From the NCBI GenBank assembly GCA_963717195.1, contig CAVQVR010000021.1, positions 204,934 to 268,933 of the forward strand: a DNA stretch of 64,000 bases. The letters run 5' to 3'. Of the stretch, positions 1 through 57,049 are shown piece after piece. The notes beneath the pieces were generated by a model. That model was not told the DNA's origin. It was given only the letters and a program-made list of their open reading frames with translations, and made no database searches. The stretch is from an uncultured Chloroflexia bacterium. Lineage in GTDB: Bacteria; Chloroflexota; Ktedonobacteria; Ktedonobacterales; Ktedonobacteraceae. The translations under genes were made by a program, and so were the position numbers. Numbering within the stretch: position 1 is the stretch's first letter; every line of letters begins with the position of its first letter.

Positions 1-72
1 TCTCCCTGGTTCTTTCATGCGGGTGGGGCTAGATTTATCGCGCCCGCCGTATTAGATAATGGGCAATACAGT

Positions 73-1416
73 ATGCGTATTATGATTGTGACGGATCAGT
101 ATCCACCAATGGTCGGGGGTGTGCCTACAGTTACCTATGGCCTGGCGATGGACTTCGCGAACCGGGGGCATCAGGTGTGGGTTGTCGCGCCCAGTTACGG
201 AGCGCATGACACACGTAGTGTGGAGGATAAAGTACGGGTCAATCGCTTTTCCTCCTTTGAGTGGCCTGCCTATGAAGGATTACGCATTCCCTTTTTACCA
301 TTTGTGCCAGTCCGCAACTTGATTAAAAAGACCGATCCCGACATCATTCACATCCATTCACCAATTGTACTGGGAAACATCGCACAAATTCTGGCTGGCG
401 GTCTGCGCAAACCAGTTATCGCCACTAATCATTATATGCCCACTAATATAAGCAGTTCATTGATGTCGGACCCCTTCATTGGCAAGTATCTCAATAGTAT
501 TACCTACTCGTACCTGGTCCATTTCTGCAATCGTTGCGAGTACGTCACGACGCCAACGCAAACAGCCTTGAATCTCCTCTATGAGCATGGACTACGCGCA
601 CCAGCACGGCCAATCTCCAACGGCATCGACCTGCAGAAGTTCTCGCCCGGTGCCAGAGAGCCTGAAGTGCTCCAGCGCTTCAAATTGCCAACCGAACAAC
701 CATTATTGCTACATGTCAACCGTCTCAGTGAGGAGAAGCGCATAGATGTACTGATCGATGCAATGGCAAAAATAAAGAGCAACACGCATCTCGCCCTGGT
801 TAGTACCGGTCCTGCGGAGGCGGAATTGCGTGCACAGGTAGAACGCTTGCATTTGCAGGAACGCGTCAGCTTCCTGGGCTTTGTGCAAGAAGAAGACCTG
901 CTCCTGCTGCGTCGTGCGGCAGACTTCTTCGCGATCCCTTCGGAGGCCGAGTTACAGAGCCTGGCAACCATGGAGGCAATGGCCTGTGGTCTTCCCGTAA
1001 TTGCCGCCAATGCGTGGGCACTCCCCGAACTGGTCCATAATGAAGAGAATGGATTTTTGTTCCAGCCCGGCAATAGCAACGAACTGGCACAGTATATCGA
1101 TATTCTCGCGAACGATGCACCCCTGCGGAAACGTATGGGAGTAGAGAGCCTGCATATTATCGCCAGGCACGACCGTAGCAAGGTATTAGAAGAGTGGGAA
1201 GAGTTGTACCGACGATTGGCAATAGAATTTCACGATGCGAAAGAACGCAGGAAACAACTGCGGCTAGCGCAAAAAAATCGCCTCAGGATTCCACAAGAGT
1301 TGCAGGATGTCCAGTTACCCCATATTCGGCGCACTGGCGACCTGGCATTTGACCAGTCACAGGGGAATAGAAGACAGCGCAGGAAAAGTAGAACGGACTA
1401 CGTGGAAGAGCCATAA
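73..1416 (+). CDS. Glycosyltransferase family 4 (GT-B, group 1 glycosyl transferase)
   Basis: 447 aa ORF. The N-terminus (IVTDQYPPMVGGVPTV) is typical of GT4 enzymes. The C-terminal EAELQSLATMEAMACGLPVIA matches the GT4 nucleotide-sugar binding motif region. Confidence 0.8.
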   Translation: MRIMIVTDQYPPMVGGVPTVTYGLAMDFANRGHQVWVVAPSYGAHDTRSVEDKVRVNRFSSFEWPAYEGLRIPFLPFVPVRNLIKKTDPDIIHIHSPIVLGNIAQILAGGLRKPVIATNHYMPTNISSSLMSDPFIGKYLNSITYSYLVHFCNRCEYVTTPTQTALNLLYEHGLRAPARPISNGIDLQKFSPGAREPEVLQRFKLPTEQPLLLHVNRLSEEKRIDVLIDAMAKIKSNTHLALVSTGPAEAELRAQVERLHLQERVSFLGFVQEEDLLLLRRAADFFAIPSEAELQSLATMEAMACGLPVIAANAWALPELVHNEENGFLFQPGNSNELAQYIDILANDAPLRKRMGVESLHIIARHDRSKVLEEWEELYRRLAIEFHDAKERRKQLRLAQKNRLRIPQELQDVQLPHIRRTGDLAFDQSQGNRRQRRKSRTDYVEEP

Positions 1417-1522
1417 TTTCAGTATCCTGAAGCGGGTCGCAAAAGAATGGTAGCTCCTACCGCTTCCGGTGGGGAAAGTATACCTCTCAAACACGAAGAG
1501 GTCAAATGAAAATGCACTAGAA

Positions 1523-1777
1523 CTAATCTCCCCAGCGACGGTGGAGTTTGCGGGCCAGCCGACGTTCGACATCCCAGCGCATCTGAATATAATAGTAGCG
1601 CAACCAGGCAGTGAAGCGTTCCCAGAATGAAGGTGGTGGGGGAGTAAAAGAGCGACGGGTATGTTCGTAAGAGTCATCTGTCGGTACAGGGACAGGTGAA
1701 CGCGGTAGCATCCACCTTCCAGGGTGCTTTTTTTGATGATCATTCGATGAAGGAAAGGCGTCACGCTTCTTTTTCAT
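1523..1777 (-). CDS. Hypothetical small protein (about 84 aa), no recognisable family
   Basis: The ATG at 1777 is preceded by a GGAGG Shine-Dalgarno (ccctggaggtttgATG). The product is basic and Pro/Trp/Tyr-containing (…SFWERFTAWLRYYYIQMRWDVERRL…). It is convergent with the GT4 gene. No homology recognised. Confidence 0.3.
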   Translation of the reverse strand: MKKKRDAFPSSNDHQKKHPGRWMLPRSPVPVPTDDSYEHTRRSFTPPPPSFWERFTAWLRYYYIQMRWDVERRLARKLHRRWGD

Positions 1778-1878
1778 CAAACCTCCAGGGTAAAGATCCC
1801 ACCAAAGTCATTGCAACATTACTCTTCTCTTGTAGTATAGACGCTCTTATTCTATTTGTCCAATGCCTTTCTAAGAGG

Positions 1879-1958
1879 GGTGCCGTTCATTTTGTGGCGC
1901 TGATGTAGGGGTGCGATTGCATAAGCCCGTGCATCAGCGCCACAAAATGAACGGCACC
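1879..1958. repeat. Perfect 27-bp-arm inverted repeat hairpin whose loop carries a GTAGGGGTGCGATTGCATAAGCCC copy of the dispersed repeat family
   Basis: Left arm ggtgccgttcattttgtggcgctgatg. Loop taggggtgcgattgcataagcccgtg. Right arm catcagcgccacaaaatgaacggcacc. This palindrome creates the spurious mirror ORFs 1696..1908(+) and 1887..2084(-). Confidence 0.8.
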
Positions 1959-2266
1959 TTGTAAGGAGAGCAAACACCTGTTTGGAAAAATTTGGGATGA
2001 CTCATACGGGGTTTTGGGATGTCCCCAACGCTTCTCTTTCTTCTTTCCATTAGTACTTTTTACATGTGATTTGGCTTCACACACATGTTTTGTTATACTG
2101 GACTCTGAAGCAAGGGATTTAGTTCACTTGTTGGGGCATCCTCAGATGCCCTATTTTCAATGCGCTGTGATAAAGAAGGATGAGAGATCAAACGATGCTC
2201 CCAGATTACTTTATATATAAGCGCCCACAATTTTTGCCTGGATTTAAACAGGGAAAGGGGTTAGAC

Positions 2267-2608: not shown

Positions 2609-2623
2609 CGTCCTGACAATAGT

Positions 2624-2722
2624 GCGGGCTTATAAATCGCGCCCGTACAAATCGCGCCCGTACACCACCAAGCCCATCAATCATCTGGTGTGCGGGCTTA
2701 TAAATCACGTCCGTACACCATC
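2624..2722. repeat. Two direct partial copies of the dispersed repeat terminal sequence (GCGGGCTTATAAATCGCGCCCGTACACC)
   Basis: First copy 2624-2668: gcgggcttataaatcgcgcccgtacaaatcgcgcccgtacaccacc. Second copy 2692-2722: gcgggcttataaatcacgtccgtacaccatc. They lie between convergent genes, and the second overlaps the true 3' end of plsX. Confidence 0.75.
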
Positions 2723-3777
2723 AATGCCCGTCAATCTGCTCAATGGACGGCTCTTTGCTTCTCGTGTGAGATTGAAAGATTGCGCTGGCAACGCCGGTCT
2801 CGGCGGTCTGGCGAGCGACGCGCAGGGCATTCTTGATTGCTTTTGCGTTAGAGCGGCCATGGGAGACGATAGCAGACCCATTAATACCCAATAACGGGAC
2901 GCCACCGTATTCGGCATAGTCCAGGCGTTTCCCGAATCTTGCGCAGACCAGGGCGCAAGACAGCGGCAGCGAGCTTATTCACTAAAGAACTGGTCATCTC
3001 GGTGCGGATCAGCCCGAGCAGCGTTTCGGCCAGCCCCTCGCTCAGTTTGAGCACCACATTCCCCGTGAAACCATCGCACACGATCACATCAGCTCCACCT
3101 GTAGGGATATCGCGCCCCTCGACGTTGCCAATAAAGTTGAGGCCTAGCGTCGGGGCCGTATTTTTGAGCAACTGATGCGTCTCAATGACGAGCTGGTTTC
3201 CTTTCAATTCTTCTTCACCGTTTGCCAGCAGGCCGACGCGAGGAGATTGCACGTGAAAGATGCGCTCCATATAAATAGATCCCATGAGTGCAAACTGCTG
3301 TAAATATTCGGGTTTGCAGTCTGTATTTGCGCCGATATCAACAACGAGGCAGATACCGTCTCTGGTGGGGAAGATACCGCCGAGAGCAGGACGATCAATG
3401 CCGGGGATGCGCTTCAGAGTGAAAAGCGCAGCAGCCATCATTGCGCCACTATTGCCAGCAGAAACGGCTCCCAAAGCGGCACCATCGCGTACCTGCTGGA
3501 GGGCAATGGTCATTGAGGCGTTCTTTTTGCGGCGCACAGCATTGGCAGGATGCTCATCCATCTCAATCATTTCGTCAGTGTGGATGATAGGCAGATCGAG
3601 TCCACTGGTATCGTGTTTCGCAAGCTCGGCACGAATAGCATCCTCGCGTCCGACGAGGTAGACGCCCATATGATACTCGCGGGCGGCCTGTATGGCCCCT
3701 AGCACAACTTCGCCAGGAGCATTATCACCACCCATGGCATCCAGAGCAACGCGAATAGGAGCATTCTCGGTGCTCAT
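2721..3777 (-). CDS. plsX: Phosphate acyltransferase PlsX, with an apparent single-base frameshift near 2927-2933
   Basis: The N-terminal 281 aa ([31 protein letters not shown]…) are canonical PlsX. The annotated frame ends as …[21 protein letters not shown]. The +1 frame read from there gives the expected PlsX C-terminus [40 protein letters not shown]…IEQIDGH*, ending at 2721. One extra T in the gtttccc run explains the break. Confidence 0.8.
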
Positions 3778-4160: not shown

Positions 4161-4441
4161 AAAGCGGTATTCCCCTCATCTCAAAAACAACCAACGGTTT
4201 GTTCACCATTATAACATCCGTATTATAACACCTTGTTGTGAGAGAGTATATGCTATTTTGTTTGGGGCTATCATCCTTTAACGAGCACCCACAAGGGGAT
4301 GCCGCCCCTACTTAAATTGTTAAACGCGTAATAATTATTATGATACGCAACATGCACGCCTCGCAATTTTATTTACAGAGCGACGATACATAGGTTATAC
4401 TACTCACTATTAGATAGTCAACCAGAAGAAACGATAGGCGT

Positions 4442-6349
4442 ATGGTATCTTCATCTCTTTTTTGCCCCACCTGCGGTGCCGCTAATTCTGCGCAAGCGGA
4501 CGAATGCTTTACATGCGGGCAAACAATAGGAGCAACGCTTGCCAACCCTCTCCAAAGAATATTAAGACAACGCTACCTGATTCTGGAACAGATAGGGCAA
4601 GGCGGGTTTGGAGCGGTATACAAGGTGTCTGATTCTCAATTGGGAGATCGCCTGCTGGCAATTAAGGAGATGAGCCAGAACGGGCTGAGCGGGCAAAATA
4701 TACAGGAGGAATTAGAACAGTTTAAGCGTGAAGCAATGCTGCTAGCTGGATTGATGCATCCCAATCTTCCACGCATCTACGATTCTTTTACGGAAGATGG
4801 CCGCTGGTACCTCGTCATGGATTTTATTGATGGGCAGACGCTGGAGGACTATCTTGAACAGGCTGATGAAGGGAAGCTACCGATTGAAGAGGTACTCGAA
4901 ATTGGTATTCAGTTATGTTCGGTACTTGATTATTTGCACACGCGCCAGCCACCGATTATCTTCCGTGATCTCAAGCCAACGAATATTATGCGTACATCTT
5001 CGGGGCAGCTTTACCTGATTGATTTTGGTATCGCGCGCCACTTCAAGCCAGGACAGGCAAAAGATACTATTGCTCTCGGCTCGCCTGGTTACGCAGCTCC
5101 TGAACAATATGGCAAGGCGCAAACAACACCAGCCGCCGACATCTATAGCCTGGGAGCCTTGTTGCACTCGATGTTGACCGGCAGCGATCCTTCCATAACG
5201 CCTTTTTGTTTCGATCCTTTGCACCTGCATGGCATCCAGGCAGCGGAATTGGAAGCTCTGCTGGAACACATGGTTGAGATAAATGTAAGCAAACGTCCCG
5301 TCAGTGCAGCTATTGTGAGAGAACAGCTACAACAGTTGCAGAAGATAGCTACAAATTCAGCACATAGAGCAGCGTTGGATATCCCTGCTGGGGGAAAGTC
5401 CATACCTGCACTGAAGCCACAGCAAACGATCTACCGCAACCATACAGACAGTATTACCAGCCTGGTATGGTCGCCAGATGGAACGAAGATTGTCTCAGGT
5501 GATAAAGATACGAGAGTCCATATATGGAACGCACTGAGCGGAGAGCCTCTGGCACAGATTTATGGATTTAGCGGACAACTACGCTGGCGCAACGCTATAG
5601 CATGGTCACGCGGCGGCATACACATTGCCCTGTTTGGCGAAGGTGATGAGAAGACAGCGTTGCGCTGGGACGCAGCAAGTGGAGAGCGTATTTTTTGCTA
5701 CTATGAGCGACGAAAGAGAGTCGGTGCGGTCGCATGGTCGCCGGAGAGTCAGTACCTGGCATTAGGGAATAATGATAGAATGGTACAGGTTCGAGACATA
5801 AGACGAGGAGAGATTATTTTTACGTACTGTGGTCACCGCGAATCATTACGCCTGAACAGAGTCAATGCGGTTGCGTGGTCGCCCAATGGCCTTTATGTGG
5901 CATCAGGTACCAGGAGTGACGGCGTCCACGTCTGGCAAGTTTCCACAGGCGAAACCATTCAGATTTACATAAGCCATGCGGCTGAATTAACGACGCTGGC
6001 ATGGTCGCCCGATGGCAAATACATTGCATCAGGTGGTGGCGACGATACGGTACAGGTATGGGAAGCGGCAACAAAGAAACGTATTTTCACCTATCATGGT
6101 CATGCAGGCATCGATACTGGTGCCGGAATAAGCGCGATTGCATGGTCGCCCGATGGAACATATATTGCATCAGCCAGAGGTGGAGATGATACTACAGTGC
6201 AGGTATGGACGGCCTTCACCGGCACGAATGCCTTAACATATACAGCACATACGGAGCAGGTCAATGTGCTCACGTGGTCACCCGATGGAACGCGTATTGC
6301 TTCGGGTAGCAATGATAGAACTATCCGTGTGTGGCATATAAACTCTTAA
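4442..6349 (+). CDS. Ser/Thr protein kinase with N-terminal Cys4 zinc ribbon and C-terminal WD40 repeats (paralog 1)
   Basis: Zinc ribbon CPTCGAAN…CFTCGQ. Kinase motifs are present: GQGGFGAVYK, AIKEM, FRDLKPTN catalytic loop, DFGIARHF, GSPGYAAPEQ. About seven WD repeats carry an AWSPDG signature. Confidence 0.9.
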   Translation: MVSSSLFCPTCGAANSAQADECFTCGQTIGATLANPLQRILRQRYLILEQIGQGGFGAVYKVSDSQLGDRLLAIKEMSQNGLSGQNIQEELEQFKREAMLLAGLMHPNLPRIYDSFTEDGRWYLVMDFIDGQTLEDYLEQADEGKLPIEEVLEIGIQLCSVLDYLHTRQPPIIFRDLKPTNIMRTSSGQLYLIDFGIARHFKPGQAKDTIALGSPGYAAPEQYGKAQTTPAADIYSLGALLHSMLTGSDPSITPFCFDPLHLHGIQAAELEALLEHMVEINVSKRPVSAAIVREQLQQLQKIATNSAHRAALDIPAGGKSIPALKPQQTIYRNHTDSITSLVWSPDGTKIVSGDKDTRVHIWNALSGEPLAQIYGFSGQLRWRNAIAWSRGGIHIALFGEGDEKTALRWDAASGERIFCYYERRKRVGAVAWSPESQYLALGNNDRMVQVRDIRRGEIIFTYCGHRESLRLNRVNAVAWSPNGLYVASGTRSDGVHVWQVSTGETIQIYISHAAELTTLAWSPDGKYIASGGGDDTVQVWEAATKKRIFTYHGHAGIDTGAGISAIAWSPDGTYIASARGGDDTTVQVWTAFTGTNALTYTAHTEQVNVLTWSPDGTRIASGSNDRTIRVWHINS

Positions 6350-6466
6350 TACAATTTTAATTGACATTTGATCCTATTGTATATACATTTTCTCTGGTGA
6401 CAGCAAGAGCCAATGGCCTTTCACGGCTCGTTTGAGGATACTGAAACGAGAAGTTTTTAAAAATGC

Positions 6467-6500
6467 TTGACAAGGATGCAGCATCTGTATTAATGTACAT
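6467..6500 (+). promoter_or_regulatory. Putative sigma-70 promoter of kinase paralog 2 (TTGACAAG…N…TTAATGTACAT)
   Basis: It lies about 50 nt upstream of the start. The architecture is nearly identical upstream of paralogs 3 and 4. Confidence 0.45.
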
Positions 6501-6546
6501 CCGTTGCACCAACAAATACAAATAAATCAAACCAGGATGTATAAAT

Positions 6547-8454
6547 TTGCTTTCCTCCATACTTTATTGTCCCCATTGCGGGGCTAAGAATAAGGCACAG
6601 GCTGCAAATTGCTTCGTCTGTCGACGGGCGTTCTATGATATTGGTATTGGTACAGCAGGCCTGGCGGCCATACAACCCCTTCTGAAGCAACGTTACCGCA
6701 TAGTGAGTCTGGCCGGGCGGGGTGGTATGGGTGCCGTCTATAAAGCTACAGATATTGAATTGGGCAACCGACTCGTAGCGGTCAAGGAAATGAGCCAGCG
6801 CGGGTTGAATGGACGAGAAAAAGCAGAGGCGGTCAGAGGCTTCAAACACGAGGCGCTCTTGCTCGCAGGTCTTCAGCATGCCCATTTGCCACGTATTTAT
6901 GATCACTTTTTGGAGAATGGGCACTGGTACCTCGTCATGGATTTCATTGCCGGCGAGACGCTAGAAAACTACCTCGCGCGGATGCCCGGGCGCAGGCTCC
7001 CACTTGAGGAAGTACTCGACTATGGTATTCAGTTATGTACAGTCCTGGAGTATCTGCACACCCGGCAGCCACCCATCATCTTTCGTGATTTAAAGCCAAC
7101 CAACATTATGCGCTCCACCGAGGGACAACTCTACCTGATTGATTTTGGCATTGCGCGTCACTTCAAGCCAGGACAAGAAAAAGACACGGCGGCATTCGGG
7201 TCACCGGGCTATGCTGCGCCGGAACAATATGGTCAGACCCAGACGACCCCTCGCACCGATATCTACAATCTGGGCGCAATCTTACATCAGATGCTCACTG
7301 GAAAAAATCCTGCACAAACGCCATTTTTCTTTGCGTCACTACCACTAGAGTTGGAAGGAACCGGCATACAAGCATTGTTGGCAAATATGCTTGCGTTACA
7401 AATGCAGCAGCGGCTACCCAATGTGATAGTTGTGAAACAGGCATTACAGCAGATTGCCATGAAAGCTCCACGCGGCCACAGCCGGGCGCTCGTGCTCAGA
7501 ATTCAGGCACCCTCGCCGCAAAAAGTACGTACGATGCCTTCCTCTGTAGGAGCACTCATTTCCACCTTCGCAGAACATAGTGATTGGATCTCGAAGGTTG
7601 CATGGTCGCCGGATGGACAACAAGTTGCCTCAGCCAGTTACGATGGAAGCGTCCAGATCTGGAATGCCTTTACCATCAGGCCCGTCACAATATACAAGCA
7701 GCAACGCCTGAAGGTTTTTGGGCAACCGCGCGTCAATGCTGTCGCCTGGTCACCGAGTGGACAGGAGATCGCAATTGCCAGTGATAACAAAAGCGTAGAG
7801 ATCTGGAACGTTACGACTACAAAAAAACTCTTTGCGTTCCGCGAGCACTCTGATAGTGTGCGTTCCGTGGCATGGGCACCGGACGGTCGGAAAATCGCGT
7901 CAGTGAGCGGCTACAAAACGTATGTGTGGAACGCCAGGAACGGAAAAACGATTACCATGCATAGTGCATCCAGAGACGAGATTCAAGATGTAGCATGGTC
8001 GCCCAACAGCAAGTATCTTGCCACCGCCAACAAGCTACAGATTGTGCGTATTTTTGAGCTTTCGACGCAGATGGAATTTTTACAGGGGACATCCTATGGC
8101 AATCATAAAGGTGCCGTACAGGCTGTGGCATGGGCTCCCGATGGTATCCGCATAGCCTCGGCGGCTGATGACAAAACGGTCCAGATCTGGAATGGGTTGA
8201 CTGGCAATCTTCTTCTGACTTACACAGCCCACGAGACAACCATCAAAGCTATTACATGGTCGCCTACTGGGAAGTACATCGCATCAGCAGGTAATGATGG
8301 AACGATACAGATCTGGGATGCGCTCACCGGCAATCATCTCTTTACGTTCCAGAAACATAGTGCTCCCATCCATACCGTAGCCTGGTCGCCGGATGGCAGG
8401 TACATCGCCTCGGGAGGTGCAGACAAGGTCGTTCATATCTGGCAAGCTACCTGA
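6547..8454 (+). CDS. Zinc-ribbon Ser/Thr kinase-WD40 protein (paralog 2)
   Basis: Same architecture as paralog 1: CPHCGAKN…CFVCRR ribbon, FRDLKPTN, DFGIARHF, APE, AWSPDG repeats. TTG start as in the ORF track. Confidence 0.9.
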   Translation: MLSSILYCPHCGAKNKAQAANCFVCRRAFYDIGIGTAGLAAIQPLLKQRYRIVSLAGRGGMGAVYKATDIELGNRLVAVKEMSQRGLNGREKAEAVRGFKHEALLLAGLQHAHLPRIYDHFLENGHWYLVMDFIAGETLENYLARMPGRRLPLEEVLDYGIQLCTVLEYLHTRQPPIIFRDLKPTNIMRSTEGQLYLIDFGIARHFKPGQEKDTAAFGSPGYAAPEQYGQTQTTPRTDIYNLGAILHQMLTGKNPAQTPFFFASLPLELEGTGIQALLANMLALQMQQRLPNVIVVKQALQQIAMKAPRGHSRALVLRIQAPSPQKVRTMPSSVGALISTFAEHSDWISKVAWSPDGQQVASASYDGSVQIWNAFTIRPVTIYKQQRLKVFGQPRVNAVAWSPSGQEIAIASDNKSVEIWNVTTTKKLFAFREHSDSVRSVAWAPDGRKIASVSGYKTYVWNARNGKTITMHSASRDEIQDVAWSPNSKYLATANKLQIVRIFELSTQMEFLQGTSYGNHKGAVQAVAWAPDGIRIASAADDKTVQIWNGLTGNLLLTYTAHETTIKAITWSPTGKYIASAGNDGTIQIWDALTGNHLFTFQKHSAPIHTVAWSPDGRYIASGGADKVVHIWQAT

Positions 8455-9328: not shown

Positions 9329-9527
9329 CGCTCCCTTTCACAACCCGTTTGAGTGTACTGACACGGGCTCCATAAGCGCTTTTTTCGCTCTCGAAAAGTA
9401 TAGCATACATAGTAGCTAAAATTCGATACGATTAAACGTTTACTTATTCCTGATAAGATTAGATTTGCTATTTCCCCATCTACTGGAATTACGTTGGGCT
9501 GCGGGGAGACTTCTGCAAAAAAGGCAC

Positions 9528-9565
9528 TTGACAAGCGCATAGCAAGTGGACTATTGTACAACATA
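9528..9565 (+). promoter_or_regulatory. Putative promoter of kinase paralog 3 (TTGACAAG…CTATTGTACAAC)
   Basis: Conserved TTGACAA / TGTACA architecture shared with paralogs 2 and 4. Confidence 0.4.
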
Positions 9566-9605
9566 CATCATAAGCATATATATTTATAAGGATATAAGAT
9601 CTATT

Positions 9606-31170: not shown

Positions 31171-31181
31171 TATAAGCCCGT

Positions 31182-46328: not shown

Positions 46329-46588
46329 ATTTCGGTTTCTCAAACCCATAGGAACCAACCACCAATACAGGGGCACGATCAGGGGTGCCATCAATATGGG
46401 GCACTGTTTACAAACGTATGGGAAAGATGGGGACACTAGATATCCTATCAAAACTGCCGATTTTTAACAATAGGTCACTTCGCGCGTATACTATACTGAT
46501 TATGAGAAAATTTGTAGGTGAACGTACACGTTGTTTCACTGCGCAAGTCCCCTTTGAGGACAAGCTAGCGGCCCATGTATAGACGATC

Positions 46589-49036: not shown

Positions 49037-49111
49037 CGTTCAATGATGAGCAGGTGTGTGCTATAACGATTCTATTCAATAGAGAGTCAAAAAGCGTGAG
49101 AGGTTGAATGC

Positions 49112-50713
49112 ATGGATACCAGTACAGCTCCAAACGATATCACATGGCCCGAAGAGCGCGTCTTCCCACTATTTCAGCCATCGAAACATTTAGACATATA
49201 TAATGTGCATTCCGCCTCACGTGATGTGCAACTCTCTATTGCAACACTGGTTGGCTTGATTAATCGTCCACAGCCACGCGTCTACCTGCTCGATAGAGCA
49301 CACGATGCGTTCTGGTTGAAAGAGGCTCTCTCCTCTATTCCCCAGACGCTTTCTGCATTGACTCAAGACGCTATCTTGCACGATCTGTTGACAAAATATC
49401 GCTCTCTGGTTCATGGACTGGTTATTTATGATCCTGCACTTATCGATACAGCAAACATTGCTACGATGATAGCCGCTCAGCGCAATGGCATCGCGGTGGC
49501 ACCCGACCAGGCGCATGAGTTGCAACAAGTTCCGTACAATCTTTCAATTCTGACCGATCTACGTATTTATAAGTGGTCCAACCGCCTGCAAGCCTATCGT
49601 TGGGCAAAAGCTAACCTGCGCAATGGAGCAACTCATCGCCTGGTTGCTGGTCTGGACCCTAATATCTCTCTGGGTATACGTCCCTTTCTGGTTGCCACGC
49701 GCTCATTCATCTACTGGCTTGATCCGCTCGGCATCCTGCCTGATCTAAGAACTGGCCTGCTCTGTGAACGGGGTCTGATGCAGCAGATTATACAGAGTTA
49801 TGCACCAGATACAGCGGGACATTTCGGCTGGTTTATCCAGGAAGGTGCAGGAGTGAGCATCACTTCACGTGCAGCTATGCCAGTCTTCGCTACCGATTTC
49901 TATTCCAACCTTGAAGTATGGGGAAGTGTAAATACTATACAACCCGCTTTACCCAGCATTCAACAGGCCACACCGACGCCTGATCCTGGCAAAATCTATG
50001 TTTCGTTTACCATGAGCGAAGGCGACAATTTACAATATATTCAGGAGCGCCTCTTGCAATTGTGGCAGGATCCCAGACGTGGAACTCTTCCCATCGGGTG
50101 GCCTATCTCTGCCGTATTGCTTGAAGCCGCCCCCACTCTGCTAGATTACTATGCACGTACCGCAACTCCTGTTGACGAATTTCTCGCCGGACCCAGCGGT
50201 GTTGGGTATATGTATCCTGCCGTCTGGCCGGACAATCAACTTTCCTCATTTCTTGCCCACACTGGTCGCTTGATGCAAAGTATGAACCTGGTAGCGCTGG
50301 AGGTGTTAGACTCAAACTTTCGCCAGAATATCGGCCTCGCGTTGCGTGCTCTCCTCAAAGGTTCAGGGATGGCATTGATAGATAAAAAGATACAACAGCG
50401 CTACGCCGAGGAATTGAAACCCGCTGGCATACAGGGCATATTCAGCGGTGCGGGCCAGAAGAACGTCAGATGGAACATGTTCTCGAGTGTCCCCGTTTAT
50501 CAAAATCTGGGTGTTGCCAGCAGCATTGACGAGGCGCTCACTATGATCAAAAAGGGTATTGACGATTATAAGGGGCGTCCTGCATTTCTAAATTTGTATG
50601 TTCTGGCCTGGAAGGTGACGCCCTCTGATCTGGAGCAAGTAGCGACAAAACTGGGTGAAGGTTATGAAATTGTAACGCCAGGTGCATTGTTGACGCTGCT
50701 GTCGCACACGTAG
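49112..50713 (+). CDS. GxGYxYP-family putative glycoside hydrolase
   Basis: Contains GPSGVGYMYP (G-x-G-Y-x-Y-P) in a 533 aa protein. Confidence 0.55.
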   Translation: MDTSTAPNDITWPEERVFPLFQPSKHLDIYNVHSASRDVQLSIATLVGLINRPQPRVYLLDRAHDAFWLKEALSSIPQTLSALTQDAILHDLLTKYRSLVHGLVIYDPALIDTANIATMIAAQRNGIAVAPDQAHELQQVPYNLSILTDLRIYKWSNRLQAYRWAKANLRNGATHRLVAGLDPNISLGIRPFLVATRSFIYWLDPLGILPDLRTGLLCERGLMQQIIQSYAPDTAGHFGWFIQEGAGVSITSRAAMPVFATDFYSNLEVWGSVNTIQPALPSIQQATPTPDPGKIYVSFTMSEGDNLQYIQERLLQLWQDPRRGTLPIGWPISAVLLEAAPTLLDYYARTATPVDEFLAGPSGVGYMYPAVWPDNQLSSFLAHTGRLMQSMNLVALEVLDSNFRQNIGLALRALLKGSGMALIDKKIQQRYAEELKPAGIQGIFSGAGQKNVRWNMFSSVPVYQNLGVASSIDEALTMIKKGIDDYKGRPAFLNLYVLAWKVTPSDLEQVATKLGEGYEIVTPGALLTLLSHT

Positions 50714-50782
50714 GGGCCGTGTTTACAACACCCAGAAGAGTCCAATGATGAGACTTCTGGGTGTTGTAAACACGGCCCCTAC
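50710..50782. repeat. Long hairpin (29-bp arms, GTAGGGGCCGTGTTTACAACACCCAGAAG…) between convergent genes
   Basis: Perfect inverted repeat sharing the GTAGGGGCC core of the repeat family. Likely bidirectional terminator. Confidence 0.7.
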
Positions 50783-50791
50783 GTTTATGTT

Positions 50792-52036
50792 TTATCCACG
50801 CAAGCGGTCCAGCACAGGTGGCTGGCGTAACTTTGCTAGAGCGCCGGCCTCAATCTGGCGAACACGTTCGCGGGTGATCCCCAGTTCGCGTCCGACCTGT
50901 TCAAGAGGGTGAGCCTGGCTGTTACCCAGACCAAAGCGCAATTGCAAAACTAATTGTTCGCGTGGTGTCAAGACTGATTCTAGAACACGCTGCACTTCGT
51001 CTTTCAGCGTCTGAGTAGTTGCAAGATCTTCGGGAGAGGCAAATTCGGTATCAGCCAGTACATCGCCCAGTTCCTGCTCCTCATCTTCGCCGACAGGTAA
51101 TTCCAGGGAGACGGGAGCTCCGGGAGCTGCCTGAAGTTCGATCATGCGAATAGGATCAAGGCCAGTGGCTTCGGCCAATTCCTGTTCTGTGGGTTCGCGT
51201 CCTAATTCTTGCAAGAGACGTTGGCGTTCGCGGCGGATCCGGTTGAGGGCGGTATTGACGTACACGGGCAAGCGGATAGTACGGCCTTTATCAGCGACGG
51301 CTCGACTGATTGCCTGACGAATCCACCATGTTGCGTGCGTAGAAAAACGGTGTCCGCGCCGCCAGTCATAGCGTTGAACCGCGCGGATCAAGCCGATGTT
51401 GCCTTCCTGAATCAGGTCAAGCAAAGTCAGGCCACGACCCACATAGCGTTTCGCAATGCTAACAACCAGGCGGAGATTAGCCAGAATGAACTGTTTCATT
51501 GCATCCCGGTCGCCACCTTCGATGCGCTTGGCAAGCTCGATCTCGCGCTCATGAGTAATCATTGGCACGCGTCCGATCTCGCGCAGGTAGGTCATCACAG
51601 CATCAGACTCGCCTGCATCAGCGGAGTTTACTGGATTCTCTTCCTGGTCGTCCGAGCGACGGCGTCGTGCAGCGGAGCGACGCGCGGGATGCTCTTCTTC
51701 AGACCCAATCTGAGGAATTGCAAGGACAGTGTCGGCCTCTAGCTCAGATGCACCGGGCAAAGGAGTTAGATCTTCATGCGGATCTGGCATCTCTTCCAGT
51801 TCCAGAGGCCCGGTCTCCAGATCAAGAGGTCCCGTCTCCAGACCACTGAGGTCTTCTTCCATCTCTTGATCATCTTTTGGGGATGACCCCTCCACGTCAT
51901 CCTCAGGTGTATAGCCAAGATCCTTCCTAAGGAACGTATTCACGATATCGAGCGGTTCCTTCTCAGGACCTTTACGTTCTTGTGACTTGTGTATGGTAAG
52001 CGTTGTTCCCGTCATGGCACGCTCTAAGTCGATCAT
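50792..52036 (-). CDS. sigA: RNA polymerase sigma-70 factor, group 1/2 (RpoD/SigA-like) with acidic N-terminal region
   Basis: Regions 1.2-4: DAVMTYLREIGRVPMIT…LRLVVSIAKRYVGRGLTLLDLIQEGNIGLIRAV…FSTHATWWIRQAI…LTPREQLVLQLRFGL…. Confidence 0.85.
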   Translation of the reverse strand: MIDLERAMTGTTLTIHKSQERKGPEKEPLDIVNTFLRKDLGYTPEDDVEGSSPKDDQEMEEDLSGLETGPLDLETGPLELEEMPDPHEDLTPLPGASELEADTVLAIPQIGSEEEHPARRSAARRRRSDDQEENPVNSADAGESDAVMTYLREIGRVPMITHEREIELAKRIEGGDRDAMKQFILANLRLVVSIAKRYVGRGLTLLDLIQEGNIGLIRAVQRYDWRRGHRFSTHATWWIRQAISRAVADKGRTIRLPVYVNTALNRIRRERQRLLQELGREPTEQELAEATGLDPIRMIELQAAPGAPVSLELPVGEDEEQELGDVLADTEFASPEDLATTQTLKDEVQRVLESVLTPREQLVLQLRFGLGNSQAHPLEQVGRELGITRERVRQIEAGALAKLRQPPVLDRLRG

Positions 52037-52345
52037 TGTGCGCCTCCATGAAAAGTAATATCCTAAGCAGCAAGATATGTCTATCGTTCGTCGGTCTGGT
52101 CCTACACTCAGGGAAAGCTAGCTTTCTCCGTTCGGACCATGTTGTCCGAGTGCCGAGTGGGAGGAAATCAATGACGTGCATCCTGTCTCTACTAGTAGAA
52201 ACATGGCCAGGTCGGAAATTATTCCTACACCAATTATAACGCAACTCTCTCTTTCATTCTAGTGTTTCCGACGCTTTTTTGACATATCATTAGAAATATG
52301 CCTGTAGACAGACTCCCCTTTCAATCTTATACGTTTGACACCCCC

Positions 52346-53047
52346 TTAAGGTGGCAACGAGTCCGGCCTTTCCCGAATAATAGACACAGGCACCCGTAAA
52401 TTCCTTCTTTGCTTCTTATGCACTGTAGATGTGCCTCTCATTCTTTGCATCATACGTATGAGTCGGTAAGCAAGATAGAGTGCGATCAGGAGAACCAGGA
52501 TAAACAATGACGTGGTACCGATGACATCTCCTATCCCCTCCCAGCTTGCTCCAAATATGTAACCAAGGGCGAGGAAAATAACTACGCCCGCCGCCTCACC
52601 ACTGATATCGAGCAGTAAAAAACGCCGGTAAGGATACATTTCAGCTCCCGCCAGCAGATTTATTGTTCCGCCCAATGCCGATACAATAAAACGACTGAGA
52701 AAGATTGCCCATCCTCCTCGTTTGCTAAAATAAAGGCGCGAGTTCTGCAACGTTTGTGGCGAGATAAGATTGAAGCGGCGCGAGTGCTCAAGCCAGGCGA
52801 AGATACGTGTACCTACCAGATACCCGATCAAATAACCTGCACTATCGCCACAGACCGCCGCCGTCAGCGCAACTCCTCCCAATAGAAAAACATTGAAATC
52901 CCCCAGCGCCGCAAATGCACCTATCGCCAATAGCACAAAGCTGATCGGAAGTGGAATACCCACGGCAGCCACAAAAATGCTAAGCCAGAGCGCCGGATAA
53001 CCAGCCTGTTCGACCCACGAAATCAAGACGGGAAGGAATGCAGTCAT
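52346..53047 (-). CDS. DedA/SNARE-associated family membrane protein
   Basis: Characteristic DedA helices …GYPALWLSIFVAAVGIPLPISFVLLAIGAFA…. Confidence 0.8.
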   Translation of the reverse strand: MTAFLPVLISWVEQAGYPALWLSIFVAAVGIPLPISFVLLAIGAFAALGDFNVFLLGGVALTAAVCGDSAGYLIGYLVGTRIFAWLEHSRRFNLISPQTLQNSRLYFSKRGGWAIFLSRFIVSALGGTINLLAGAEMYPYRRFLLLDISGEAAGVVIFLALGYIFGASWEGIGDVIGTTSLFILVLLIALYLAYRLIRMMQRMRGTSTVHKKQRRNLRVPVSIIRERPDSLPP

Positions 53048-53484
53048 TGTTTATTCCCCCTCACCTGATCTTTCTTATTCATCATAAGAGCAAACGCAGG
53101 CATAGCTGTCAGAGAATGAAGCTTTCGGTACGCGAGAATTGCCTGTTGAACTTCGCTAATAAGATGACTGGTCGGCTGTTTATACCGTGTGGCAAGCACT
53201 TCTAACGTCGTATGACGCAACGTACGTGAATTGGAAAGGTGCAACTGACTATAAAGATATGTTTCGGGAACGCGATAGGTGTGAGCAATATAAGGAATTG
53301 TCATCCATTGATCCACCGTGCGTACATCACCAGAATTTGCCATAGCATTTTGTTGGCGAAATTTTTGCACTGTTTGCATAGTAGACTTCGCAGAGAAAGC
53401 TACACAAAAAAGTGCCAGTAACAACAAAATGAAAGTAAGGATAAATTTTGTACGCAAGCTCAAAGGACAAACTCCACAGTTCAC
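53044..53484 (-). CDS. Hypothetical protein with N-terminal signal/anchor
   Basis: Hydrophobic N-terminus (FILTFILLLLALFCVAFSA). Its stop overlaps the DedA start (ATGA). Confidence 0.35.
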   Translation of the reverse strand: MNCGVCPLSLRTKFILTFILLLLALFCVAFSAKSTMQTVQKFRQQNAMANSGDVRTVDQWMTIPYIAHTYRVPETYLYSQLHLSNSRTLRHTTLEVLATRYKQPTSHLISEVQQAILAYRKLHSLTAMPAFALMMNKKDQVRGNKQ

Positions 53485-53776
53485 TCACCCTTGCACATCT
53501 CTTTTATAGACTGAAAGAGATATGAATATAGTAAAAGAATAACAGATCATCTCGATTATATCAATGTTCATCTCTCACATATCATCTACAAACTAAAACG
53601 TTCCCGCACCCGGTTACGGTTCATTGGGTCTCAATGATGGTAGAGGCCTCACCCTGGCGGGATGCAAACCTCAACTCATTCCATATATTGACGAGTAAAG
53701 CAAGAAGCTGTACACTAGATGAAATATCACTGCCCTTCTTGATATTACTCTTTGCTATCAAATATGGTACATAATA

Positions 53777-54232
53777 ATGGAAATGAGCACACCCATAGAG
53801 CCTTTAAAGGTGGCGATCAAACGTATTGATCCAGCACTGCCTTTGCCAATGCACGCAACTACTGGATCAGTTGGCTTTGATCTGTATTGCCGCGCGGAGA
53901 TGGAGGTCATGCCACGCCAACTGGCACGTATTCCCGCCAACCTGGTCGTCTGTACTCCACCTGGTTACATGCTCTTGATTACAATGCGTAGCAGTACGGC
54001 ACATCGCAAAGGGTTACTGATCCCTAATGGTGTAGGGGTCGTCGATCAGGATTACTGTGGAGAGGGTGACGAACTGCTAATATCGGTGTATAATTTTAAA
54101 GATGAAGCCGTGTTCGTCCATTATGGAGAACGTATTGCACAGGGAATCTTTGTCCCGATTATGCGCGTTGCCTGGCAAGAAGTCGATGCTATGGGTCAGG
54201 CGCGTGGAGGCTTTGGAAGTACAGGTGCATAA
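53777..54232 (+). CDS. dut: dUTP diphosphatase
   Basis: …TTGSVGFDLY… and …GVVDQDYCGE… motifs. The start could instead be the ATG at 53783. Confidence 0.85.
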   Translation: MEMSTPIEPLKVAIKRIDPALPLPMHATTGSVGFDLYCRAEMEVMPRQLARIPANLVVCTPPGYMLLITMRSSTAHRKGLLIPNGVGVVDQDYCGEGDELLISVYNFKDEAVFVHYGERIAQGIFVPIMRVAWQEVDAMGQARGGFGSTGA

Positions 54233-54582
54233 TGCCGCTAGCTGATTATTATGCCATTCTGGAAGTTCCCAGAAACGCGTCGCTTGAGCAGATCAAGCGC
54301 TCTTATCGTCGCCTGGCTCGCCTGTATCATCCAGATGTAAATCAACAGGCCCAGGACGATCGTATCAAACAACTTAACGAGGCGTATAATGTGCTCGGCG
54401 ACCTGGCCCGGCGTGCTGCTTACGATGCCATGTTCCTGCAAGAACTACGCTATGCAGCTCTGCAGGAATTAGTGCGCCGCCAACGTGAAGAGGCGCATCG
54501 CAGGCAACAGGAGAAGATAACCTGGACGCAGGGCGTCGTCGGTTTCGTAAAAGAATTTAAAAAAGCCCTGCGCGAAGATTAA
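54232..54582 (+). CDS. J-domain protein (DnaJ-like, J domain only)
   Basis: DYYAILEVPRNASLEQIKRSYRRLARLYHPDVN (HPD motif). Overlaps the dut stop by 1 nt. Confidence 0.8.
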   Translation: MPLADYYAILEVPRNASLEQIKRSYRRLARLYHPDVNQQAQDDRIKQLNEAYNVLGDLARRAAYDAMFLQELRYAALQELVRRQREEAHRRQQEKITWTQGVVGFVKEFKKALRED

Positions 54583-54587
54583 TCTCT

Positions 54588-55127
54588 CTATTGCTCTTCA
54601 AGCAAACTAATCAAAGTCTGCTCATAGACCCCATAGTCATCGTTACTGAAAAGCACGAACATTACTTGCTGCACACTGGTCGGGCTCTTAATATGATCGA
54701 TCACCGTCTGTAAGGCAATAGGTGCTGCCTCTTTAAGAGGATAACCGTAGACACCTGTACTGATCGATGGAAAAGCAATGCTGGCAACGTGATGCTGTTC
54801 CGCCAGATCAAGACATGATTGGTATGCGCCGGCAAGCAACTGCGCCGCGTCGCGATGATGTCCGTAAATAGGGCCGACGGCATGAAAAACATATTTTGCC
54901 TTAAGCCGACCAGCCGATGTCGCAACAGCTCTCCCGGTGAGGCACCCGCCAATCTTGTGGCATTCCTCCATAAGAGTAGGACCAGCGGCACGATGAATTG
55001 CGCCATCGACACCACCACCCCCCGCGAGGGCAGAGTTCGCCGCGTTCACAATAGCATCAACCTGCACATCGACAATGTTTCCACGCAGCAGGACGAGTGT
55101 CGTCCCACGAAATTTGTATGTTGACAT
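54588..55127 (-). CDS. Macro domain protein (O-acetyl-ADP-ribose deacetylase-like)
   Basis: …VDAIVNAANSALAGGGGVDGAIHRAAGP… and …IAFPSISTGVYGYP…. ATG 55127 has a ggaag RBS. Confidence 0.85.
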   Translation of the reverse strand: MSTYKFRGTTLVLLRGNIVDVQVDAIVNAANSALAGGGGVDGAIHRAAGPTLMEECHKIGGCLTGRAVATSAGRLKAKYVFHAVGPIYGHHRDAAQLLAGAYQSCLDLAEQHHVASIAFPSISTGVYGYPLKEAAPIALQTVIDHIKSPTSVQQVMFVLFSNDDYGVYEQTLISLLEEQ

Positions 55128-55210
55128 AATAACTTCCATTTGTTTATCTCATGTTGTGTGTATCTTGAACTATTGTACCCTGTAGAAGAAGAAGATACCA
55201 GGGGGTGAGG

Positions 55211-55270
55211 AAACAGGGGTAGGGGCGTCATCTTGCATGCGCACGCAAGGTGACGCCCCTACCCCTGTTT
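55211..55270. repeat. Nested palindrome hairpin (AAACAGGGGTAGGGGCGTCA…TGACGCCCCTACCCCTGTTT)
   Basis: Perfect 20-bp arms with an internal palindrome. Sits between hup and the macro gene. Same GTAGGGG core. Confidence 0.7.
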
Positions 55271-55304
55271 AAAATTGTGGCAGTGAGGAATACATCACAA
55301 CAAA

Positions 55305-55616
55305 CTACTTTTTGACAACGGCCTCCGAAAGTTCTTTGCCTGGGAAGAAGCGTACACGTTCTTTCGCGGGCACCTCGATTGGTTTTCGGTCGCGTGGATT
55401 GACCCCCTTACGTGCGGCACTCTGGCGTACTTTGAAAGAGCCAAAGCCCACTAGACGTACCTCTTCACCATCCTGAAGTGCTTCACGGATGACATCAAGA
55501 GTTGCCTCCAGCACTTCAGAAGCCTGCTTTTGGGATAGTTTTGCTTGTTTGGCAATGCGCTTGGAAAGCTCTTGCCTACCGATAGTTGTTACATTTGCTT
55601 TTTGAGTCTCGGCCAT
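55305..55616 (-). CDS. hup: HU family DNA-binding protein
   Basis: …RIAKQAKLSQKQASEVLEATLDVI…VRLVGFGSFKVRQSAARKGVNPRDRKPIEVPA… and about 100 aa length. Confidence 0.9.
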   Translation of the reverse strand: MAETQKANVTTIGRQELSKRIAKQAKLSQKQASEVLEATLDVIREALQDGEEVRLVGFGSFKVRQSAARKGVNPRDRKPIEVPAKERVRFFPGKELSEAVVKK

Positions 55617-55867
55617 AGGTTCGAAATCCTCCTTGCAACAATCAACACACGTCGCTTTTCATCCCAATTTTTCATTTGTTGGGCCTGTAGAGCGGCATTA
55701 CAACCTCACTGCCGATAGGAGTATAGCATGTGAATTTAAGAAATACAAGCATACCACTATCTCTAAATAACTACTAGAGAGAGTAAAACCGCCCCAGAAG
55801 CCAATCTAAACCTATCAAGCAATTTAAAAATGGCTTCACAGGCCAATCGAGCGAACGCTATTTTTTA

Positions 55868-56908
55868 TCATATAATTGAGTAGAGAATCGTTTCGTCTTT
55901 TGTGTGACGCTGTTCAATCTTTCTTTGAAAACGGAGATATTCAAGGTGCGCCAATACCTCAGCAACTGCCATACGCCTTGCTTCATCGTTCTGCAATGTA
56001 CGTTGCTGGAATAGTTGATTCGTCAGTTGATTGGCATGTTGGGGCTCTAGTGCGAGCAGGTCTAGTATCTGCTGCAAACGCACTGCATGATGCGCTATAA
56101 TTTCTCCCACACGACCTTCCAGATCAGTAAATGGCTCTCCATGGCCGGGCAACACTTTACTAACGGGCCATTTTGCCACCTTGTTGAGCGAGTTTAGATA
56201 ATCATCCAGAGGATTCTTTCGTTCCCGATCCGAGTAAAGACCAATATTCGGTGTGATACGTGGCAGGACATGATCAGCGGCGAGAAAGATTCCATCTCGC
56301 TCGCGGAAGAGGCAGATCTGTCCATCAGCATGCCCTGGCGTCCAGATAACACGGTAGCTTTCACCCATGAGCTCAAAATCCTGTCCATCCTCAAGTGGAA
56401 GAAATGCCTCATGAGGTGGAACATTAATAAGATGGCGTATGGTTTCTTGATCGGTCTGGTTATACCACAACCTGGTAGGCGGAAGTCCGTGTTGCTGAAA
56501 GAAATGCGAAACATATTCAAAGCGCTTCGGCATAGTGCCTGACCAGATAATTTGCAAGGTAGCTTCGTCAATGGGGTGCATATAGACAGGAGCGCCACTT
56601 TGTGCCTGCAGCTCGCCCGACAATCCAACATGATCAGGATGGTGATGCGTCAATATAATAGCCCGTAGCGTGTCAATTCGTAAACCACTCAGATGTTGCC
56701 ATTCTTCAAATGCTGCACGCGCATCTGGCGTTCCCATCCCTGTATCAATTAATGCCCAACCATCCTTTCCTACCAGTGCATAAGCGTTAACAGTTTTTAG
56801 CGGAAACGGAATGGGCAAGGTGATTTTCCAGAGGTTCGGCACTACTTCACGCGCTACAGGTAACGTTATGTCATTGGAACGGGGTGGCTCCGGAAATGGC
56901 TGGTGCAT
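55868..56908 (-). CDS. MBL-fold metallo-hydrolase
   Basis: ILTHHHPDHVGLSG (HxHxDH). The ORF-track start at 57031 (GTG) reads through the upstream palindrome. ATG 56908 is preferred. Confidence 0.7.
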   Translation of the reverse strand: MHQPFPEPPRSNDITLPVAREVVPNLWKITLPIPFPLKTVNAYALVGKDGWALIDTGMGTPDARAAFEEWQHLSGLRIDTLRAIILTHHHPDHVGLSGELQAQSGAPVYMHPIDEATLQIIWSGTMPKRFEYVSHFFQQHGLPPTRLWYNQTDQETIRHLINVPPHEAFLPLEDGQDFELMGESYRVIWTPGHADGQICLFRERDGIFLAADHVLPRITPNIGLYSDRERKNPLDDYLNSLNKVAKWPVSKVLPGHGEPFTDLEGRVGEIIAHHAVRLQQILDLLALEPQHANQLTNQLFQQRTLQNDEARRMAVAEVLAHLEYLRFQRKIEQRHTKDETILYSII

Positions 56909-57000
56909 GGTAGGGGTATGTCCTTTTTTGTACGCTCGATGAGGGTCATTAAGATCCCCAGATGATTCTAGTTGATTGTAAAATTTTATGTAATGCTCTG

Positions 57001-57049
57001 TCAAATGGTCAGAACGGGGTAGGGGTGTCACCCCGTTCTGACCATTTGA
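57001..57049. repeat. Palindromic hairpin TCAAATGGTCAGAACGGGG-taggggtgtca-CCCCGTTCTGACCATTTGA
   Basis: 19-bp perfect arms. The loop carries the TAGGGGTG motif. Confidence 0.7.

Follow-up and report, generated by a model that had tools for sequence, protein, structure and literature searches.

Short dispersed repeats recur at about 12 loci in the 64,000-nt stretch of DNA analysed here (the window; positions 204,934 to 268,933 of contig CAVQVR010000021.1, from an uncultured bacterium of the family Ktedonobacteraceae). We consider that they are probably repetitive extragenic palindromic (REP) elements belonging to the GTAG-tagged superfamily, the units of which would be spread by a REP-associated tyrosine transposase (RAYT). 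A preliminary description of the window had offered two labels, REP and MITE (miniature inverted-repeat transposable element), and the former is the fitting one. The elements are of a known kind, and their sequences constitute new families not previously described in this class.

Abundance and spread of the repeats

The motif GTAGGGG is present 17 times in the window, compared to 3.9 +/- 2.0 times expected from dinucleotide-preserving shuffles, none of which reached 17. Thirteen of these sites lie within repeat elements, and the remaining four (42991, 43412, 54032 and 56910) are about as many as chance would provide. The two consensus sequences that had been proposed as terminal inverted repeats (TIRs) were found at four and two sites in the window, with none expected. 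When species-representative genomes were searched with GTASGGRYGYSATTTATAAKCC, at least 93 stretches matched, and among the matches listed nearly all came from five MAGs (metagenome-assembled genomes) of Ktedonobacteraceae or Chloroflexia. This rules out that the repeats are unique to the window; the claim of a real dispersed, mostly extragenic family is borne out. The sampled stretches of DNA, mostly surrounding repeat copies, are labelled L001, L002 and so on. A covariance model built from 116 copies gave 189 matches in 708 kb of sampled DNA. No copies were found in viral contigs (IMG/VR), no match was obtained in Rfam and tRNA scans of the window, and the literature search found no paper containing the core sequences or linking Ktedonobacter with REPs.

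Sequence reading, a repeat finder and the covariance model together substantiated nearly all of the element positions given in the preliminary description. The two that did not hold were a GTAGGGG at 36280-36295, where the actual letters are GTAGGGC and no family features are present, and 19457-19730 as a single element (see below). Two loci had been overlooked, one at 4280-4311 on the minus strand and one with degenerate headless copies at 46376-46430. The ATTTAT(A/C) core occurs at only about six loci of the window.

Structure of the units

In an alignment of 118 unique family-A copies, the information content was about zero outside positions -5 to +25 and both borders were sharp. The mobile unit is therefore about 30 nt long, asymmetric and free of terminal inverted repeats, with the sequence aTGRT-GTAGGGGCGCGATTTATAAGCCCGy. 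In 86% of the copies the head reads GTAG and in 14% GTAC, directly followed by GGGC, and the GTAG head is also found in families B to E. The GTAGGG-headed sequences of the loci all fall into families built on one plan: GTAG, then GGGC or GGAC, a loop of 11-13 nt, and GCCC or GTCC. The consensus sequences are GTAGGGGCGCGATTTATAAGCCCG for family A, GTAGGGGCCAGATTTATCGCGCCCC for family B, GTAGGGGCGTCACCTTGCGTGCGCCC for family C and GTAGGGGCCGCAyTkATGmCGCCCAGG for family D/E. What had been taken for one family is a superfamily of at least four, having in common only GTAGGGGC and the stem-loop plan.

The two sides of the stem covary. Of 187 occurrences of GTAG+GGGC, 118 are matched by GCCC at loop distance; for GTAG+GGAC, a matching GTCC was seen in 26 of 62, versus 1 of 62 in a control window. 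GGAA/TTCC and GGGT/ACCC were found as further stem variants. Dimers form very strong hairpins (z from -10 to -17). Target-site duplications, for which the preliminary description had proposed to look, were not enriched in 83 singletons, whichever boundary and length were combined. The units can be read open in four of the six frames, as VGARFISP, RGAIYKP, RAYKSRPY or GLINRAP.

Arrangement and genomic context

The 151 family-A-like units comprise 76 singletons, 17 heads-in dimers (gaps of 35-74 nt), 11 heads-out dimers (typically about 20 nt apart, with the conserved centre …GCGCTCCCCAGGCCGA…) and 12 tandem pairs. The arms of family-A dimers carry locus-specific extensions of variable length. 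Families B, C and D occur mostly as doublets, and for these the doublet may be the conserved unit. Tandem arrays (L015, L034, L050 and window 2624/2692) contain at most four units with identical spacers, which identifies them as tandem duplications. Duplicates of a partial unit plus flank lie in tandem in L053, L046, L086, L071, L052 and window 2632-2664, and single units sit in the loops of locus-specific palindromes at window 1879-1958 and in L004, L028, L049 and L098 (13416-13456). Truly intragenic, in-frame copies number about five, as in an EamA-like transporter gene in L056 (reading …GARFISP… and …LINRAPT…) and a kinase gene in L060 (…VGVPFISP…). The elements of the window are listed in Table 1.

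Table 1. Repeat elements of the window, with coordinates, strand and supporting details
Position	Strand	Element	Details
23-48	+	Family-B-like single unit with GTGG head (GTGGGGCTAGATTTATCGCGCCCGCC)	Upstream of a GT4 glycosyltransferase gene; 80% complementary to 19697-19726
1879-1958		Hairpin, the 33-nt arms of which are locus-specific and 94% complementary	Fold -42.9 kcal/mol, z=-12.7
1899-1933	+	Family-A-like unit in the loop of hairpin 1879-1958, GTAGGGGTGCGATTGCATAAGCCCG	Covariance model 31.1 bits, E=1e-5
2621-2654	-	Family-A unit (GTACGGGCGCGATTTATAAGCCCGC)	Covariance model 40.7 bits; its 5' part is duplicated in tandem next to it (15 nt, to about 2664)
2689-2722	-	Family-A unit, direct copy of 2621-2654	Covariance model 40.8 bits; GATGGT, its 5' flank, overlaps the TGA stop codon (2721-2723) ending the plsX C-terminal frame
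4280-4311	-	Unit of another GTAG family (GTAGGGGCGGCATCCCCTTGTGGGTGC)	Related copies GTAGGGGCAC(T/C)CCCTTGTGGGTGCC in L046 and L098
19455-19480	+	Family-B unit, GTAGGGGCCAGATTTAGCGCGCCCC	Relatives in L019, L006, L076, L089 and L030
19705-19730	-	Family-B unit, GTAGGGACCAGATTTATCGCGTCCC, GGGAC/GTCCC stem variant	Inverted relative to 19455-19480
21217-21344		Inverted dimer of family-A variant GTAGGGGTGCCATTTATAATCC(C/T)GC, GTAG heads inward	Arms 21217-21260 (-) and 21301-21344 (+), 44 nt, 93% complementary; fold -51.1 kcal/mol, z=-12.4; covariance model 49.6 and 45.2 bits; between convergent membrane-protein and purH genes
31014-31035	-	Degenerate family-A remnant (…GCTTATAAATCCATCC…)	Partial covariance-model match 31018-31026
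31052-31156		Family-D hairpin dimer, heads outward, 47-nt arms (GTAGGGGCCGCACTGATGCCGCCCAGG…)	Convergent genes; fold -58.5 kcal/mol, z=-12.0
31155-31180	+	Degenerate family-A remnant (…AACGCGATTTATAAGCCCGTC)	Covariance-model match 31164-31176, 16 bits
34740-34820	-	Small family-A cluster	Intact unit 34758-34791, covariance model 55.7 bits; partial copies on either side (…GCGATCAATCGCGC… and GGGCTTGTCAATCGCGCTAC)
46376-46430	+	Degenerate headless family-A-like copies (GGGGTGCCATCAATAT, GGGGCACTGTTTACAAAC)	Alignment with L099
50708-50784		Perfect 31-bp-arm hairpin dimer, heads outward (GTAGGGGCCGTGTTTACAACACCCAGAAG)	Fold -41 kcal/mol, z=-16.9; TAG of left head (50711-50713) is the stop codon of the GxGYxYP gene (gene end 50713)
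55211-55270		Family-C hairpin dimer, heads outward (GTAGGGGCGTCA(C/T)CTTGC(G/A)TGCGC)	Downstream of the HU gene; fold z=-10.6; similar family-C copies in L049, L058, L060, L072 and L092
57001-57049		20-bp hairpin with GTAGGGG in the loop, family membership uncertain	Fold z=-10.0; weak covariance-model match, 13.7 bits; divergent MBL/mraZ region; no second copy in the sampled loci

Among the 99 family-A units whose context could be classified, 22 lie between convergent, 43 between tandem and 14 between divergent genes, and 20 fall inside crude open reading frame (ORF) calls. Thus 79 of the 99 are intergenic even though the DNA is 82% coding, and the density per kb of intergenic DNA falls from 1.6 in convergent to 0.8 in tandem and 0.5 in divergent regions. 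The elements had been said to sit almost exclusively between convergent gene ends or downstream of stops. Convergent regions are indeed the most densely occupied, but the counts and densities are spread over all classes, and the pattern is therefore a tendency rather than a rule. Single units in tandem gene contexts showed a mild orientation bias (29 versus 14).

When 1,715 ORFs from 93 loci were clustered, no transposase recurred as a neighbour. The recurrent families were ordinary ones, namely kinases, ABC transporters, hydrolases, F420H2 quinone reductases and TPR/TIR proteins. Members of the F420H2-dependent quinone reductase family adjoin family-A units in L025, L027, L059, L062 and L091, which may simply reflect the large size of this paralogous family.

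Comparison with related genomes

Three 20-kb loci of a close relative (assembly ERZ25039475, 83-89% nucleotide identity) cover the window from 11.6 to 29.5 kb, from 29.9 to 40.6 kb and from 44.4 to 56.8 kb. At 50708-50784 the relative (L099) has a hairpin of the same family with a centre 23 nt shorter; the arm differs at four positions within its first 20 nt, and each change is compensated on the opposite arm. At 55211-55270 the flanks and the heads GGGGTAGGGGC…GCCCCTACCC are kept in L099, and the interior belongs to family C in the window versus family B in the relative. Replacement was also seen at 31052-31156 (a family-D hairpin in the window, a family-C-like hairpin in the relative) and at 21217-21344 (in the window a dimer of the family-A variant, in the relative a family-B-like dimer together with one unit of yet another family). 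The cluster at 34740-34820, a unit with partial copies on either side, corresponds to nothing but the single unit in the relative; the cluster grew by partial duplications. At 46376-46430 the window has 56 extra nucleotides of degenerate units where L099 has only GTAGGGG followed by CACTAGAT, and the spacer between purH and the L27 gene, empty in the window, holds a hairpin-embedded family-A-like unit in the relative. These orthologous sites reveal that the elements persist in place, turn over rapidly and carry hairpin arms that co-evolve.

The same comparison dissolves the proposed element of about 270 bp with 26-bp TIRs. It consists of two units flanking single-copy DNA that is orthologous to L098 9292-9382 of the relative, where the arms are absent. 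In L098, the aTGT flank is present together with a unit and is absent from the empty site in the window; because the flank arrives with the unit, it acts like a piece of the element and not like its target. Filled and empty sites in the pairs window/L032 and L019/L030 (80-88% identity) are too diverged to yield clean footprints. In the syntenic region of Tengunoibacter tsumagoiensis, no family-A unit was found, but another GTAG family is present.

Identity and presumed mobilization of the elements

The GTAG-tagged REP superfamily was described by Di Nocera, De Gregorio and Rocco in 2013 (PMC3733652), and it includes GTAG-15, with a large loop, and GTAG-23 from the Chloroflexi (Thermomicrobium roseum). 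That work reported head-to-head, tail-to-tail and head-to-tail dimers, clusters reiterating the flanks, insertions within palindromes, intragenic copies and TAG stop codons donated to genes. The Ktedonobacteraceae elements share with these a GTAG at one end, beside a G/C stem, a unit size within 20-40 nt and several families per genome; the occurrence of singletons, heads-out, heads-in and tandem dimers, clusters with reiterated flanks and units embedded in palindromes; and in-frame intragenic copies, TAG used as a stop codon and a preference for 3' intergenic sites. They differ in having a stem of 4-5 bp versus the published 6-13 bp, a loop of 11-13 nt with a conserved ATTTAT core, and new sequences, the Ktedonobacteria having been outside that survey. 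A REPtron, that is a RAYT gene flanked by its REPs, with families A to E was not found in the approximately 792 kb searched.

Resemblances extend to other REP systems. The REPINs (REP doublet-forming hairpins) and RAYTs of Pseudomonas and Enterobacteria (Bertels and Rainey 2011, PMC3116915; E. coli RayT structure, PMC3479197) likewise include inverted doublets forming long hairpins, vertical persistence at orthologous sites and several coexisting populations. In contrast, half of the family-A units are singletons and the doublet is not clearly the replicating unit; moreover, group 2 and 3 RAYTs have been described only in Gammaproteobacteria. Within the phylum, a Chloroflexota plasmid (CP069395, strain ZRK35) encodes a RAYT that contains the motif WQRRFWEH and shares 41% identity with E. 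coli RayT, and heads-out dimers beginning GTAGGGTGCGC… lie on both sides of it, as in a classic REPtron. Its REPs have a head similar to that of the Ktedonobacteraceae units, but differ in the REP body, in their 8-bp stem, in belonging to an Anaerolineae-like lineage and in lacking any sequence match to families A to E. A second RAYT, on Chlorohelix plasmid NZ_CP128402, is flanked by GTGG-type REPs. Directly downstream of this RAYT-like gene (L096 1951-2095), a 16-nt REP piece (GAGCAGCCTCTCACTG) is repeated nine times in tandem, resembling the partial-unit duplications around the Ktedonobacteraceae units.

Mobilization of the units by a RAYT is what these likenesses suggest. GTAG beside the foot of a hairpin is the feature that RAYT (TnpA_REP) recognizes (PMC3733652, PMC6006769, PMC3479197). 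By analogy with E. coli RayT and the Chloroflexota REPtron, a single-copy tyrosine transposase of the Y1/HUH type would recognize the GTAG tag and hairpin on single-stranded DNA, then cut and rejoin it without duplicating the target. Such cutting and rejoining would spread units to intergenic DNA and would allow one family to replace another at an occupied site. As the hairpins are found mainly at the 3' ends of genes and their pairing has been maintained over time, they probably double as RNA 3'-end or terminator-like structures; any such effect on the host would be exerted in a genome poor in canonical intrinsic terminators.

The elements agree with REPs in every feature compared apart from the strength of the stem, which is borderline, and the presumed link to a RAYT; the weak stem is the first of several observations that weigh against identifying them as such. 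A single family-A unit is a weak hairpin of 4-5 bp (-5.9 kcal/mol, z=-0.6), and the common variant GGGT…TCCC loses one of the stem pairs. With 76 singletons to 75 paired units, family A does not fit the REPIN model, and the copy counts refer to the window and the sampled loci rather than to the total of the source genome. The terminator scan of 44000-63900 called none of the GTAG hairpins, as their loops exceed 8 nt or a T-run is lacking. Searches of about 792 kb of Ktedonobacteraceae DNA, by tblastn with four RAYT queries and by a motif regular expression, detected neither a RAYT nor any other Y1 transposase. A metagenome search by pattern (WQxRFWEH, 190-220 nt, GTAGGGGC) gave only one match, an unrelated REPtron. 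The missing RAYT says little, since the sample amounts to about 1% of the genomes concerned and a RAYT is normally single-copy in a genome of such size.

Protein-database searches gave a similar outcome. With the ZRK35 RAYT as the query, the best 120 of 5,066 matches were Anaerolineae-like and none was on a known Ktedonobacteraceae contig; with the Chlorohelix RAYT, no RAYT from Ktedonobacteria was found, and the search led to an organism of 74% GC with GTGG-type REPs. A weak RAYT match in L060 (E=0.13) was dismissed as noise.

Alternative explanations

If the repeats were MITEs, as the preliminary description chiefly took them to be, they would be deletion derivatives of an insertion sequence encoding a DDE transposase, mobilized in trans through their TIRs. 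Loci resembling this exist, namely 21217-21344, the arms at 19455 and 19730, and the family-B dimers of 87-100 nt in L001, L019, L027, L058 and L065. Like bacterial MITEs (Nezha, RUP, Correia/NEMIS), the repeats are small, non-coding, intergenic and dispersed, with some copies bounded by inverted repeats. However, the family-A unit is single, asymmetric and only 30 nt long, versus 70-300 nt for MITEs, and its consensus lacks TIRs; the inverted arms run into locus-specific sequence of variable length, so that the supposed TIRs are inverted pairs of units with locus-specific extensions. The interior of 19455-19730 is orthologous single-copy DNA, systematic target-site duplications are lacking in the 83 singletons, no transposase recurs near the copies in the 93 loci and no parent insertion sequence is known for them. 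We therefore hold a MITE origin to be very unlikely. Lack of target duplication would suit mobilization by the TnpA of resident IS200/IS605 or ISC elements, as for palindrome-associated transposable elements (PATEs), in place of a dedicated RAYT. Ktedonobacter racemifer has many IS605 and ISC elements (IscB, TnpB) with Y1 transposases, which insert without target duplication at 4-nt targets (PMC4810608), and the 5' aTGRT, which is semi-conserved, is similar to a target or flank of the IS200/IS605 type. Yet GTAG abutting the stem is the signature of RAYT/REP systems and not of IS605 ends (PMC6006769), the units in the sample have no IS605-like gene linked to them, and the aTGT flank arrives with the unit in L098; this kind of mobilization appears rather improbable.

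That the hairpins were selected by the host, as terminators, mRNA stabilizers or protein-binding sites, and spread and became homogenized by gene conversion or template switching without transposition, also seems unlikely as an account of their origin. In 44000-63900, canonical terminator-like sites were fewer than in shuffles (9 versus 17.6 +/- 3.7) and promoter-like sites were more numerous (37 versus 21.7). The shortage of terminators, the persistence of hairpins at orthologous 3' intergenic sites with compensated arm changes, the mild orientation bias and the slippage-like appearance of the tandem partial duplications all speak for such selection. On the other hand, the presence of sharply bordered, almost identical 25-mers at over 100 unrelated sites and in several species demands a copying mechanism, copies also lie within coding and divergent regions, and the hairpins have no U-tracts; an identity as rho-independent terminators was not supported by the terminator scan. 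The low count of terminator sites leaves room for a role of the hairpins in the host and is no proof of it. Host selection is compatible with the REP identity as a secondary role, not as an alternative origin. As for degenerate CRISPR-like mini-arrays, a repeat of about 28 nt and short arrays with periods of 41-70 nt could bring these to mind, but there is virtually no chance that they are CRISPRs: most copies are solitary, the arrays do not exceed four units, no cas domains were found in the neighbours scanned, and identical spacers within arrays led us to reject the possibility.

A variant of the REP explanation treats the heads, GTAGGGGC…GCCCCTAC, as fixed recombination or cleavage sites at which a Y1/HUH enzyme would swap whole hairpin interiors as cassettes among loci. 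It is prompted by the orthologous sites at 55211-55270 and 31052-31156, which keep their heads and differ in the interior, and we think it has only a slim chance of being correct. If it were, a hairpin would always be kept at the 3' ends of genes, and the lineage, poor in canonical intrinsic terminators, would obtain terminator-like structures from a domesticated REP system.

The in-frame copies recall the Rickettsia palindromic elements, some of which also lie in frame within genes and add short peptides (here VGARFISP or GLINRAPT). However, the Rickettsia elements are 100-150 bp long and have no GTAG tag, and intragenic copies are a small minority in the Ktedonobacteraceae.

Overall, the kind of element is ordinary, the families themselves are not previously described and the significance is modest. 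The GTAG-REP superfamily is extended to the Ktedonobacteria, with at least four families defined by sequence. Members of this class are spore-forming, rich in natural products and have large genomes. The family sequences should be helpful for masking spurious ORFs, flagging likely breakpoints in MAG assemblies and typing strains. The orthologous sites offer a clean natural example of REP turnover: compensated arms, family replacement at fixed sites, and cluster growth. Our understanding of the REP mechanism is unchanged by these findings; the mechanistic link that would matter is the cognate RAYT, the presumed agent of mobilization.

Other features of the window and related loci

The window encodes, among others, five tandem Ser/Thr-kinase-WD40 paralogues, plsX, purH, mraZ-rsmH and relA paralogues. 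The five zinc-ribbon/Ser-Thr-kinase/WD40 proteins (635-754 aa; 4442-16257) are encoded in an array that is broken by a single response-regulator gene of opposite orientation (8447-9328). Adjacent RelA/SpoT-family paralogues of 831 and 815 aa (43833-49036), 66-72% identical in DNA over parts, are kept in L099.

Two genes appear broken. In plsX (2721-3777, minus strand) there is an apparent frameshift near 2950: the ORF at 2881-3777 covers positions 1-274 of the 324 in Pfam FA_synthesis, and the conserved C-terminus lies in another frame ending at TGA 2721-2723. The gene is intact (358 aa) in T. tsumagoiensis (L103). A luciferase-like monooxygenase gene (29983-30988, plus strand) is broken up into a pair of ORFs (29983-30297 and 30290-30988) that overlap and are in different frames, and is a single intact 315-aa gene in the relative (L100 19095-20042). 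This suggests indel errors in the long-read MAG assembly, and single-base details of the repeats should therefore be read with care.

Synteny with the close relative stops at about 40593 and about 56815 in the window, the hairpin at 57001-57049 lying near the second breakpoint. Beyond the MBL gene, L099 contains unrelated ORFs (one with a weak relaxase match) and then a giant NACHT/HEAT gene. Within 36226-36436, about 160 nt are absent from the relative; this stretch contains GGGCTTAAGCCCGCC, a palindromized fragment resembling the family-A tail, as well as the GTAGGGC mentioned above, and may be a decayed element cluster. At 17520-17565, between convergent acyl-CoA dehydrogenase and hydrolase genes, there is a perfect 46-nt palindrome without a GTAG tag, and at this position L098 has 1.2 kb with two extra ORFs (5920-7142).

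L098 9153-9986, compared with window 19412-19760, carries a gene for an F420H2-dependent quinone reductase where the window has its right-hand family-B unit. Between the two family-B units, a conserved segment of about 130 nt (window 19547-19660, L098 9292-9385) consists of a promoter-like TTGCTATACT followed by a strong hairpin (AAAGAGCGCTCGATTTGA…TCAAATCGAGCGCTCTTT), the arms of which differ by compensated changes. The segment has no Rfam match and may represent a small RNA, or else a leader together with its terminator. Finally, L103 9037-9750 (T. tsumagoiensis BIFR01000001.1) is a 0.7-kb intergenic cluster of another GTAG family (GTAGGGAAAGTCGCTTGTCTCTTTCC…, in dimers), located upstream of a response-regulator/plsX operon in a cultured relative that is possibly tractable for experiments.

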